Below, piece after piece: positions 26,576-30,077 of a stretch of 31,139 bases of DNA. The stretch's first letter is position 1. Every line of letters begins with the position of its first letter. Both the position numbers and the translations under genes were made by a program. Source of the DNA: Candidatus Bathyarchaeum sp. Its GTDB lineage: Archaea > Thermoproteota > Bathyarchaeia > Bathyarchaeales > Bathyarchaeaceae. Under the pieces are notes generated by a model that saw nothing but the letters and a program-made list of their open reading frames with translations, did not search any database and was not told where the DNA came from. The stretch covers positions 1-31,139 of the forward strand of contig SOJY01000063.1 in NCBI GenBank assembly GCA_004376385.1, written 5' to 3'.

Positions 26576-27919
26576 TTAAACATATTTCCTGAGGTGTTCT
26601 TTTGCTTCGTTGATACTTTGGAAACCGTATTTGATGTCCTTGAAGCTCTGCCTCAATTTGATGACATCCTTTCGTACTTCGGCGCGGGTCCTCTTGCCCT
26701 TCATGACATCCAAGATCAAAGAACACAGGCGCTCTATGTCATTTTCTTTGAAGCCTCTCCGAGTCACATCCTGAAAACCTATCCTGAGACCCGACGGGTC
26801 ACCATGGTTGTGCTGATTATCGTAAGGCAAAAGATTCTTGTTCAGAACAATGTGGGCATCCTCAAGACTAAACGCGAGCTTCTGTCCGCCACCATAATCT
26901 CGAACATCAACAGCAATCTGGTGGGAACGCGTAAAACCATTCTTTCTTCCCAAAACCTTCACGCCATTCTCGAACAGGTACTTGCCCGCTGTCTGAGCGT
27001 TCTTAATTGTCTGCTTAGCCAACTCTTTACCGTACAGTTTCAGCTCCAATGCGGCTAAACCCAAGGCAGGAAGCCGTCCAAGATGAGTGCTCGAGGCGCT
27101 CAACGGGAATACCGCATGCTGCACCTTCTTGATTGCCTTCTTCATCCGTTCGTCTTCACAATTCGCGAGGATAACTCCGCCTTGAGGTCCTGGAAAAGTT
27201 TTGTGAGTTGACGCAGTTATGAAATCCACGCCTTCTCCGAAGGGGTCCTGAAACTCTCCGCCGGCAATCAAGCCCAAGACATGCGCTGCGTCATAAACAA
27301 CGTAGGCACCCGTTTCCTTAGCAACTTCTGCCAGTTCCTTAACGGGGTGAGGAAACGGGAAAACGCTGCCTCCGAAAGTCACTATGCCCGGTCTAGCTGT
27401 GTCGATTATTGTAGCAGACTTTTCTGAGTCAATGTTCAGTTCGTCTATATCGTAAGCGTGATTAATGGTCTCCAACCCCAATACTCTACCGGCAAGACCA
27501 GAGTAGTCATGACTGATATGAGCCCCAGCACTAAGTGGCAAAACAACCATCCGGTTATTTTTTGTTGCCAAAGAGACGCCTTTGAAGGTGGCAAGATTCG
27601 CGTGGGTACCTGAGACAAGCCGCACGTCAGCCCAGTTACATCCGAACAGATTTTTCATCAAATCTGCTGCGTAATTCTCGATTTTTGTAATGTATTTCTG
27701 ACCTTGATAGTGCCTCGCTTTAACGTGGCCCGCAAGGTCATTTTCTCCTTCGGCGTACCTGGATTCCAAGTCCTGTGACAAGCTTAGTATTTCGTTCACT
27801 GCCGGAGATTTGAGTCCCTCACTTGCAATCAGATTTATGCACTCTTCTCCCCGGTATCGTTCATGGTCTTCGCTGGATTTAATTAACCCGAGAGCTAACT
27901 TCAAGAAGTCATCTTCCAT
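26576..27919 (-). CDS. glyA: Serine hydroxymethyltransferase, archaeal type (start ATG 27919 after GGGAGG rather than 27973)
   Basis: NLIASE, RYAEG, YQG, SGTHAN, HISH, DAAHVLGLIAGG, STHKTFPGPQGG (PLP lysine), SG.RIG. Confidence 0.95.
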   Translation of the reverse strand: MEDDFLKLALGLIKSSEDHERYRGEECINLIASEGLKSPAVNEILSLSQDLESRYAEGENDLAGHVKARHYQGQKYITKIENYAADLMKNLFGCNWADVRLVSGTHANLATFKGVSLATKNNRMVVLPLSAGAHISHDYSGLAGRVLGLETINHAYDIDELNIDSEKSATIIDTARPGIVTFGGSVFPFPHPVKELAEVAKETGAYVVYDAAHVLGLIAGGEFQDPFGEGVDFITASTHKTFPGPQGGVILANCEDERMKKAIKKVQHAVFPLSASSTHLGRLPALGLAALELKLYGKELAKQTIKNAQTAGKYLFENGVKVLGRKNGFTRSHQIAVDVRDYGGGQKLAFSLEDAHIVLNKNLLPYDNQHNHGDPSGLRIGFQDVTRRGFKENDIERLCSLILDVMKGKRTRAEVRKDVIKLRQSFKDIKYGFQSINEAKEHLRKYV

Positions 27920-28140
27920 CGCCCATTTTCCTCCCAAACAGTTCCTCAGGGCATTTTGTTGGTTTCTGAGCATTACGTCACTTATTTACATTTCTTCACA
28001 CGAAAAACCACAGCACCAGCTTGTAACTTCAAAGGGCTTCGGCTGACAGTTTCCTGTTAAGAAATGGATGTATCATAAGTCAATATTTTGAGTTCATAAA
28101 GCTTTTCTTTATTTTCAATATCGATCTAAGCGGTGTAACC

Positions 28141-28287
28141 ATGAGCAAACGGAAACTCCACTATGGAGTGCGCCTAACCGTGGATCAGTTGAAGTACCTG
28201 AAGACTGTTGGTAAGCCTTCAGAATGGATACGTCAAGCAGTAGATGAAAAGAAAAGACGTGAAGAGAAAGACCTCAGATCAAAATGA
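28141..28287 (+). CDS. 48-aa ribbon-helix-helix (CopG/Arc/MetJ-like) protein MSKRKLHYGVRLTVDQLKYLKTVGKPSEWIRQAVDEKKRREEKDLRSK (not in the ORF track)
   Basis: Hand-translated; alternating beta strand (HYGVRLT), helix A, then SE.IR.AV helix-B signature; GGTG SD upstream. Confidence 0.72.
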   Translation: MSKRKLHYGVRLTVDQLKYLKTVGKPSEWIRQAVDEKKRREEKDLRSK

Positions 28288-28584
28288 AACGAAGCTAGAC
28301 ACGCAAAACAGCAACAGATAAACTGAAGTTCGATCCTACGCGCGTCCAAACGGAAGCAAAATAAACAAGACGGTCACAATGCTTCTAGCTTTTCAGTCAC
28401 ATTCATTTATGTTGTAGCGTATTTGTCTAAATGGATTTGAAAGTTCTTAATCATCAACCACTATCAAATTCTTGATCAATAGATGGAAAGCCAACAGAAA
28501 TCTGTCGAAAAAATTCTTTCTGAAAAAGAGTTGTTTCAAAAAAATGTCGGATTCATTACAGGTTCCAGTCTTTATTCCGACACA

Positions 28585-28626
28585 TTTTTATAGGCGGTCG
28601 GCGAAACCCTCTCTTTGAGGGTGATA
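28585..28626 (+). promoter_or_regulatory. TATA box and strong SD for HTH-fae-hps
   Basis: TTTTTATA at 28585-28592; GAGGGTGAT just upstream of GTG 28629. Confidence 0.55.
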
Positions 28627-28628
28627 TT

Positions 28629-30077
28629 GTGTCGGGATATGACGGTAGAAAACCGGAAACAAAAGAAGAATTCATCGATTTACTGGTTACAGCCAAGAAA
28701 GAGGAAAGAAGAATAAGGAAATCTCGGGGTAGCAGGTCGACGAAACCGACAATAAAGGGTACGGCCGAAGTCATGGGGATTCACCGTGACACTTTGTATC
28801 AGTGGATGAGAGAATTTGATGTTGACTTTTCGGATGTTGATGAGAGGGAACTGCTTTTCGAAGAAGCCACGAAGCGCAAAGAAACCACATATCTGATTGG
28901 CGAGGCTTTGATGGGTGAAGGCACAGAGGTTGCCCATGTAGATTTGCTGATTGGCGACAAGGATGGTCCTGTTGGGCAAGCTTTTGCCAACGGTTTGTCG
29001 AACTTGTCTGCCGGTCACACTCCGCTTCTAGCAGTTATACGTCCGAATCTTCCACCCAAACCGCATACGCTTCTTGTGCCAAAGGTCACTGTGAAAAATA
29101 TGGAGCAGATAGGAAAGATTTTTGGTCCTGCTCAGGCAGCCGTAGCAAAGGCGGTTGCTGACTCTGTCGAAGAGGGGATTATTCCGGAGGACAAGGTTGA
29201 TGATTGGGTGATCATCTGCAGCGTCTTTATTCATCCGCAGGCTAAGGATTATCGCAGCATTTATCATTATAATTATGGAGCAACAAAACTGGCGTTGTCG
29301 AGGGCTTTGGAGAATTATCCTTCACTGAAGAAGATCATGTATGATAAAGACAGGGCGAAGCATCCGATAATGGGCTTCAAAGTGCCTAGATTGTGGAGAC
29401 CACCCTACCTGCAGGTAGCCCTTGATGTTCCCAACTTGGAAAGAGTCAAGAAAATCATAAACGAGCTGCCGGAGAGCGACAGAATCATACTGGAGGTTGG
29501 TACACCTCTGCTGAAGAAGTACGGCGTGAACGTCATCCGTGACTTGAGGAAGGTGGCTAAAGACATGTTCATCGTAGCTGACCTGAAGACGTTGGATGTC
29601 GGAAAAGTGGAGGTTGACTTAGCCTTTGAGGAAACAGCCGACGCAGTTGTAGTCGCTGGTTTAGCAACTCCAGAAACTATCGACAAATTCATCAAAGAAG
29701 CAAAACGGCTAGGAATCTACGCAATAATGGATTTGATGAACGTTGACGACCCCATCGGCAAACTTCGGTCACTCAAAAGATTGCCTGATGTTGCGATTCT
29801 ACATCGTGCCATAGATGCGGAGAAAACAGGCAAAACACGCTGGGATATAATCAAGGAGATGCGGCAGACATTCCAAGGCAAGAAGTTTTTGGTAGCAGTT
29901 GCAGGCGGCATAACTCCGGAGACAGCGCCTGAAGCGTTGGCAAATGGGGCAGACATCATCATTGTCGGACGATACATAACGCAATCCAAGGACGTAGAGC
30001 GGGCAACCAGAGAATTCTTGAAGAGCACAAAAGACATGGCACAGGACATAGACCTCTTCAGGGTACACGTAGAATAA
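28629..30077 (+). CDS. fae-hps: Formaldehyde-activating enzyme / 3-hexulose-6-phosphate synthase fusion with an extra N-terminal HTH domain
   Basis: Fae: IGEAL.G.G...[38 protein letters not shown]; Hps: LQVALD, E.GTP, D.K..D, H..D, AGGI, VGR.I; aa 40-65 form an HTH. Confidence 0.93.

Follow-up and report, generated by a model that had tools for sequence, protein, structure and literature searches.

The window analysed here is a 31,139-nucleotide stretch, positions 1-31,139 of contig SOJY01000063.1, of a Candidatus Bathyarchaeum sp., part of a metagenome-assembled genome (MAG) of 1.59 Mb that is 79% complete. On its forward strand, positions 28629-30077 encode a protein of 482 residues, read from a GTG start, in which an 87-residue N-terminal extension (28629-28889) stands ahead of the bifunctional enzyme Fae-Hps. 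The extension is predicted to fold as a helix-turn-helix (HTH), and the promoter in front of it holds a spaced array of TGTCGG repeats. This gene, HTH-fae-hps, its promoter and the relation between the two are the subject of this report. Hps splits hexulose-6-phosphate into ribulose-5-phosphate (Ru5P) and formaldehyde, and Fae joins the formaldehyde to tetrahydromethanopterin (H4MPT).

Judged from its domains and substitution rates, the enzyme part of the protein is a full-length Fae-Hps under strong purifying selection. The translated open reading frame (ORF) is matched by both Pfam and NCBIfam. The Fae domain (residues 90-248; 28896-29372, forward strand) covers positions 1-159 of the 159 in PF08714 (E 3e-72), and is followed by the Hps domain, of the OMPdecase fold (residues 259-462; 29403-30014, forward strand), which covers positions 1-220 of the 221 in PF00215 (E 1e-37) and is also recognised from Hps chains in the PDB. 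In the Fae domain, the pairwise ratio of nonsynonymous to synonymous substitution rates (dN/dS) stands at 0.04. Positions 2-390 of the 392 in the NCBIfam equivalog NF009833 (Fae/Hps) fall on residues 88-481, with a score of 610 bits where the cut-off is 274, and residues 4-165 of the solved Fae 1Y5Y align with residues 86-247. Since all of these alignments start at about residue 86-90, residues 1-87 fall outside every Fae-Hps model and are, as far as these models tell, an addition to a complete Fae-Hps. The initial annotation, made from the letters of the window, had placed the start of Fae-Hps near residue 88 after an extension of 87 residues, and the span of NF009833 bears this out. No second Fae is found in the assembly, and the gene for Phi (HxlB) is encoded elsewhere in it. 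As the sole Fae, with a Phi partner, HTH-Fae-Hps is probably the organism's working copy and active in both reactions. Public annotation names these proteins only "bifunctional enzyme Fae/Hps" and misses the N-terminal domain.

The N-terminal extension

The extension is real, translated and conserved. Within the first 100 residues, in-frame ATG, GTG or TTG codons occur only at codons 1, 49, 56, 60, 94 and 95, which leaves none between residues 61 and 93. Canonical bathyarchaeial Fae-Hps genes begin one to four codons ahead of Y-L-I-G-E-A, where the window gene has no start codon. Upstream of codon 1 lie a conserved Shine-Dalgarno (SD) sequence, GAGGGTGAT (28617-28625, forward strand), kept as GAG(A/G)GTG across loci, and a conserved TATA box, TTTTTATA (28585-28592, forward strand), at -44 from the start codon; both keep their positions in 40 non-redundant loci. 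The initial description of an in-frame extension, behind a strong SD and without a start codon close to residue 88, agrees with this codon map.

Residues 1-92 are matched at 55-89% identity by 276 database proteins of 479-530 amino acids that carry Fae and OMPdecase, and most of these open with the same (M/V)-S-(G/E)-(Y/F)-D-G-K-K-P. Pairwise dN/dS is 0.11 over codons 1-70 as a whole, with 0.20 in codons 3-33 and 0.05 in codons 34-70; codons 3-48, at 0.15, are likewise under purifying selection, and upstream DNA read in frame as a control gives 0.87. The assembly itself was also checked, and the junction between extension and enzyme (28889/28890) is not a join of two ORFs, as DNA contigs from two other runs span it (X1, 28654-29708; X5, 28000-29294). 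In all, the stretch was found in 18 runs, these two included; the 18 come from about 11 studies that sampled marine sediment, cold seeps and the subsurface. The same architecture recurs in more than 50 examined loci of other assemblies, complete MAG chromosomes among them.

In the AlphaFold models, the extension is a three-helix HTH that belongs to no named family. The predicted helices (16 homologues) span residues 12-33, which form a long, basic helix, 42-49 and 53-63. The HTH proper occupies residues 42-63 (28752-28817, forward strand), with a predicted local distance difference test (pLDDT) of 85-91 and a dN/dS of 0.05, and is recovered in the alignment as well. The peptide P40 to V65, which the initial annotation had quoted for the HTH, does lie at 28746-28823. 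The loop before the HTH helices carries an invariant R-S-x-x-P-T, and the predicted recognition helix starts with an invariant H-R-D-T-L-Y; the strongest constraint in the extension falls on this helix and the basic loop ahead of it. The linker (residues 73-87) is disordered in the model and variable, also in its length.

The HTH had at first been called Fis-like. Its HTH shape stands, on the model and on Pfam matches below threshold, but membership of the Fis family does not: neither the protein nor the extension is matched by Pfam HTH_8 (PF02954, Fis) at E≤1, a related protein, P0134, gets HTH_8 at E 0.15 only, and no fold match exceeds Z 5.5. Structure-search neighbours are all DNA-binding HTHs, spread over sigma regions 3 and 4, TetR, AraC, NtrC1 and Fis. 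Foldseek against the PDB and AFDB clusters found no match at E≤0.001, every E value being above 0.1 (Fis, E 1.6). The NtrC1 DNA-binding domain superposes at Z 4.4 (root-mean-square deviation 2.5 Å over 44 residues), no better than sigma region 4, TetR or AraC. Because HTH_8 does not match and the fold matches are weak and spread, "Fis-like" describes a look and not a family. A sequence profile of the extension found no solved relative among PDB sequences. Look-alikes in the ESM Atlas are small HTH proteins, many of them viral, which score at most 0.90 and are leads only. As a separate observation, proteins P0146, P0147 and P0153 carry four to five tandem HTH units with T-L-Y-x-W-x-x-x-F, like the recognition helix of the extension.

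Across a survey of 301 sampled Bathyarchaeia genomes, Fae is present in 180 and this HTH in 67. Within the order of the window the HTH occurs in all 12 genomes of family f1, 47 of the 48 of f2, five of the six of f5 and the single genome of f6; one genome of another order has it too. There is one strong HTH match per genome, save for G102, which has a second copy, and the match always heads a Fae-Hps frame. These open frames have about 480-530 residues, except for the copy in G130 that is cut by a contig end. In an exhaustive search of representative proteins, most entries were copies of this gene with truncations or frameshifts. The full-length forms are missing from that list, perhaps since they are represented by proteins without the extension. 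The candidate for a second HTH in the window's genome, at C130 (E 8e-4), was rejected as excisionase/MerR-like with a different recognition helix.

Two further occurrences of the HTH family stand apart from this pattern. At one locus, a separate gene lies directly downstream of fae-hps (L088:297-1033, forward strand). It opens with 75 residues of this HTH family, followed by a part that is TIR-like or nucleoside 2-deoxyribosyltransferase-like, split by stop codons at 759-763. A possible free-standing form of 108 residues (P0140), unconfirmed, sits on a 719-bp contig.

The promoter array and its change with the head domain

The motif array is a conserved and phased feature found almost only in the gene's own promoter. 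Its sites were compared in a MAFFT alignment of 41 promoters with less than 75% mutual identity, and counts are over 40 of these, one with a mis-set start being left out. Farthest upstream, at -126, is a degenerate TGTCGAA (28503-28509, forward strand; exact TGTCGG in 15 of the 40 loci). It lies 42 bp, or four helical turns, from the middle site, TGTCGGA at -84 (28545-28551, forward strand; exact hexamer in 31/40), which in turn lies 32 bp, or three turns, from the proximal site. This operator-like TCCGACA (28576-28582; TGTCGGA on the reverse strand) abuts the TATA box at the position of the B recognition element (BRE) and keeps the exact hexamer in 36 of 40. The start-codon site, TGTCGGG (28630-28636, forward strand), spans bases 2-3 of the start codon, codon 2 and the start of codon 3, and is likewise exact in 36 of 40. 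The only columns of the alignment conserved to at least 90% are TCCGACA, the TATA box and the TGTCGG at the start. Exact hexamers occur at a density of 2.95 per 152 nt in the promoters, against 0.041 genome-wide. The middle and proximal sites stand 31-34, 41-44 or 52-54 bp apart, which makes three, four or five helical turns, and some f2 lineages have an inverted upstream copy with its phasing kept.

The copy at the start codon is constrained as DNA and not as protein, since TG-TCG-G is kept while the first start base (A/G/T) and residue 3 (G/E/D) vary around it. TCG encodes Ser2 in 22 of 23 loci but makes up only 12% of the Ser codons in the rest of the gene. A further CCGACA (28746-28751, reverse strand), a weak candidate, falls on the invariant Pro40-Thr41, 116 bp or 11 turns from the start-codon site. 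These two residues are encoded by CCG-ACA in 40 of 52 loci, where about 10% would be expected from codon use, and the word may be an intragenic site or a coincidence.

Within the 1.59-Mb assembly, the array is the sole intergenic cluster of at least three hexamers within 160 bp; the other cluster of hexamers sits inside an acyl-CoA synthetase-like gene. Single candidates elsewhere were set aside. Motif matches at C166:4021 and C280:428-530 fall within coding sequence, and those at C34:393 and C135:334 are lone hexamers beside TATA-like words, with no other sites. The pattern CCGACA-N3-TTWWATA, run over five near-complete relatives, hit the own Fae-Hps promoter in four of the five and gave two other matches in total, and a reversed control pattern gave one match. 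No copy of the hexamer is present in the phi promoter. The only visible target of the array appears to be the HTH-fae-hps gene itself.

Other Bathyarchaeia carry different DNA-binding heads on the same enzyme. In the ribbon-helix-helix (RHH) type, found at 13 loci in several families, the extension has 55 residues and starts M-S-D-D-K-G-L-V-R-A-P-G-R-I-T (RHH-type loci in other Bathyarchaeia: L036, L038-L041, L044-L046, L048-L052, L078). Its profile matches ParD 3KXE at E 2e-4, together with further ParD and CopG/Arc/MetJ chains; Pfam RHH_1 gives only E 0.0017 for L036. TGTCGG is absent from the 13 promoters of this type. What recurs in them is GTGACA(C), at about -124 and -72, usually followed after a few bases by an inverted GTCACA, just upstream of the TATA box. 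This GTGACA composite is present at the Fae-Hps promoter in three of five tested genomes and almost nowhere else in them. HTH-type promoters contain GTGACA/TGTCAC four times in 41, none of them at the RHH-type positions.

A third head, the HTH-B type, is an extension of 69 residues with an HTH like that of sigma-70 region 4 and extracytoplasmic function (ECF) sigma factors (Pfam E 1e-4, above cut-off). It was seen in one genome (L079:518-1903, reverse strand, 461 aa) and one further protein cluster. The L079 promoter has neither TGTCGG/CCGACA nor GTGACA/TGTCAC, other repeats not having been searched for. Word-seeded searches returned four RHH-type proteins and one HTH-B-type protein, and the breadth of both types rests on the genome survey. 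Plain Fae-Hps genes at four loci without an extension (L053-L055, L081) have neither repeat in the promoter. Across these loci, then, promoter motif and DNA-binding domain change type together. The Fae-domain tree does not settle the deep order of the head types (66/76 support).

Natural variants are found within the HTH type as well. In G127, a genome of family f2, the first ten codons of the gene are kept and the HTH is lost in frame, giving a protein of 412 aa (L080:269-1507, forward strand). The sites in its promoter have decayed: CCGGCA stands at the TATA box and ATGTCAGG at the start, and there is no upstream copy. Because this gene groups with HTH-type f2 genes in the Fae-domain tree (97/79), the absence of the HTH is a secondary loss. 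The second copy in G102 (L082) has diverged in both invariant motifs, from K-P-T..G-T-A to K-L-T-D-I-G-V-A and from H-R-D-T-L-Y to Q-L-D-T-L-Y, and its promoter has no hexamer.

Proposed self-regulation and its rivals

The gene probably encodes a self-regulating enzyme-repressor that reads TGTCGGA in its own promoter. Binding of the HTH to the TGTCGG sites, taken by itself, seems quite likely. An enzyme-regulator had already been suggested in the initial annotation, and a regulatory role gains support from the conserved, phased promoter array that changes with domain type. HTH-site binding, repression and a Fae-like pentameric oligomer are inferences, as would be a modulation by formaldehyde, by H4MPT or by sugar phosphates.

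In the mechanism we propose, a flexibly tethered, monomer-type three-helix HTH at the head of Fae-Hps would read the heptamer TGTCGGA. Transcription from archaeal promoters starts about 25 bp after the TATA centre; the predicted start here is at about 28612-28618, with a leader of about 14 nt that would begin at the SD. The proximal site would cover the BRE position, the start-codon site would lie near +15 from the predicted transcription start, and the upstream sites would be three to five helical turns away, all facing the same side of the helix. One enzyme oligomer would hold several HTHs that occupy these sites jointly, and occupied sites would block access of transcription factor B (TFB), TATA-binding protein (TBP) and RNA polymerase. 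Accumulating enzyme would in this way occupy its own promoter. Such negative autoregulation is proposed because the heptamers are single, with no partner half-site nearby, and phased, sites fall at the BRE and near +15, and the enzyme is expected to be oligomeric. Fae of Methylobacterium is a pentamer, and its entries 1Y5Y and 1Y60 hold ten chains in all; a pentameric display of the HTHs is suggested by analogy with that Fae only.

Several points weigh against a self-regulating repressor. Motif and domain go together largely through inheritance within one clade, and no more than two or three events are independent of it: the deletion, the degenerate paralog and the swap or swaps of domain. HTH proteins mostly bind paired half-sites, and for them single 7-bp sites at distances of 31-54 bp are unusual. 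Basal promoter function could account for part of the conservation of the proximal site, which lies where the BRE does. The Pfam matches of the extension, though all to HTH families, are below threshold (HTH_28 E 6e-4, HTH_Tnp_1 E 1e-3, HTH_23 E 2e-3), and its fold matches are weak, the best among 48,161 chains in VIA-align reaching Z 5.5. Finally, the transcription start is predicted from promoter geometry, and the sole RNA contig, 228 nt from metatranscriptome X19, lies within the Fae domain (29096-29323); X20 is probably DNA.

The rival that survives best keeps the same DNA-binding enzyme and makes it an activator, or a ligand-switched dual regulator and thus a true trigger enzyme. We regard this as possible, at well under even chances. 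In the ligand-switched form, occupancy of Fae or Hps by formaldehyde, H4MPT, Ru5P or hexulose-6-phosphate would shift the geometry of the HTHs and with it the occupancy of the DNA. Archaeal activators usually bind in the region where the sites at -84 and -126 lie. The fusion of three unrelated DNA-binding domains to the same enzyme suggests that the enzyme body is more than a scaffold, for example a sensor, and the analogues PutA, BirA and RbkR (PMC5397151) are ligand-responsive. However, rigid allosteric transmission is hard to square with a linker that is disordered and of variable length, and sites at the BRE and near +15 suit simple occlusion. Ligand control of HTH-Fae-Hps is in our view doubtful. 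Equally tentative is a metabolite-sensing enzyme-repressor, in which the heads of an oligomeric core would wrap the promoter until occupancy by formaldehyde/H4MPT or a sugar phosphate releases them, and which would have arisen at least three times (HTH, RHH and sigma-region-4-like), each time with its own operator.

It is improbable that the TGTCGG array serves another regulator as its operator while the HTH has different targets or a different role. The candidate would be a conserved 48-codon gene upstream (28141-28287, forward strand), whose product has an RHH-like pattern of strand, helix, G-x-S and helix. This ORF lies 340 bp upstream of HTH-fae-hps, between it and the divergent glyA, and adjoins HTH-fae-hps in 21 of 36 loci (tblastn, 71-93% identity). 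It has no Pfam or NCBIfam match, is probably unannotated in many MAGs, and from its sequence could possibly be a second regulator. Yet the array is kept at loci whose 2.4-4 kb of upstream flank yielded no homologue of the small gene, such as L003, L004, L020-L030 and those of families f2 and f5, and it is gone where the HTH is deleted or degenerate. The genome, moreover, is without a second copy of the HTH family or another intergenic clustered site.

Improbable, too, is an extension that does not bind DNA at all and instead serves as an oligomerisation, protein-docking or RNA-binding module of HTH-like shape. The sub-threshold Pfam matches would allow it, as would the lack of a relative in the PDB profile search and fold Z-scores in the range of common helical arrangements. 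But the constraint is strongest on the predicted recognition helix and its preceding basic loop, other lineages swap in a ParD/CopG-type RHH (E 2e-4) or a sigma-region-4-like HTH (E 1e-4), both DNA-binding folds, and a role other than DNA binding would leave the promoter repeats unexplained. The chance of an artefact, whether through a misplaced start codon or through an assembly that fused a small HTH gene to fae-hps, is close to nil, as the start-codon map, the conserved SD and TATA box, the 276 homologues, the dN/dS values, the recurrence of the architecture in other assemblies and the bridging contigs exclude both for practical purposes.

Comparison with known enzyme-regulators

HTH-Fae-Hps has a predicted DNA-binding domain and a full-length enzyme in one polypeptide, as trigger enzymes do; the domain is here a modelled HTH whose family matches stay below Pfam thresholds. 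A close layout is that of PutA from E. coli and Salmonella, which is also a bifunctional enzyme with a small N-terminal DNA-binding domain and a flexible linker. In PutA, an N-terminal RHH precedes proline dehydrogenase and pyrroline-5-carboxylate dehydrogenase, and the protein represses its own operon from several operator sites. It shares its RHH fold class with the RHH-type Fae-Hps of other Bathyarchaeia. It differs from the window's protein in being bacterial, in its unrelated enzymes and pathway, and in having an RHH instead of an HTH. The PutA switch consists of flavin reduction and membrane binding, for which no counterpart was seen in HTH-Fae-Hps.

BirA, the biotin ligase/repressor, and NadR likewise join an enzyme to an N-terminal HTH, and their repression is tied to their own metabolism. 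They differ in acting as dimers on one palindromic operator with a co-repressor made in the active site; we know of no co-repressor-making chemistry for Fae or Hps. The short three-helix HTHs of Fis and NtrC have an R-x-T-L-Y-like recognition helix, as the extension does, but they are C-terminal and bind as dimers on paired half-sites, while the extension is N-terminal. Canonical Fae-Hps (NF009833; Methanosarcina, Methanocaldococcus) corresponds over its full length to residues 88-481, starts one to four residues ahead of Y-L-I-G-E-A and has no DNA-binding domain.

Among archaea, RbkR is a riboflavin kinase with an N-terminal domain of the HTH class that was found by comparative genomics of promoter motifs; that it binds operators in the promoters of its pathway was first a prediction and was later demonstrated (PMC5397151). 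RbkR has a winged HTH, palindromic operators and a riboflavin regulon (PMC5397151), whereas HTH-Fae-Hps has single heptamers at whole helical turns and its own gene as the only target found. HTH-Fae-Hps is unlike its known kin in four respects: the enzyme, the HTH of no named family, the phased single sites and the three heads seen on one enzyme inside a single class. The architecture had been thought undescribed, and no description of a Fae-Hps fused to a DNA-binding domain was found in the full-text literature, which was covered in part. The genome paper of Bathyarchaeum tardum mentions neither Fae nor formaldehyde.

Bathyarchaeia are among the most abundant archaea of anoxic sediments, and to our knowledge almost nothing is known about gene regulation in them. 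An 87-residue domain and a 7-bp site form a candidate regulator-operator pair for this class, and HTH-Fae-Hps would be an archaeal addition to the short list of enzymes that double as transcription factors. The three unrelated DNA-binding heads on one enzyme, with variants in which head and sites are deleted or decayed, amount to a natural experiment. In this enzyme, pentose synthesis releases toxic formaldehyde into the one-carbon pool on H4MPT, and its control bears on carbon flow. If the tentative metabolite-sensing repressor did arise at least three times, tight self-control of formaldehyde-releasing pentose synthesis would be a general need in Bathyarchaeia, an abundant and largely uncultured class.

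The gene glyA for serine hydroxymethyltransferase (26576-27973, reverse strand) runs divergently to the small ORF and fae-hps, a position kept in 20 of 36 loci. Serine hydroxymethyltransferase is another source of methylene-H4MPT or methylene-tetrahydrofolate. Its family model begins at residue 35, so the called start of glyA may lie too far upstream.

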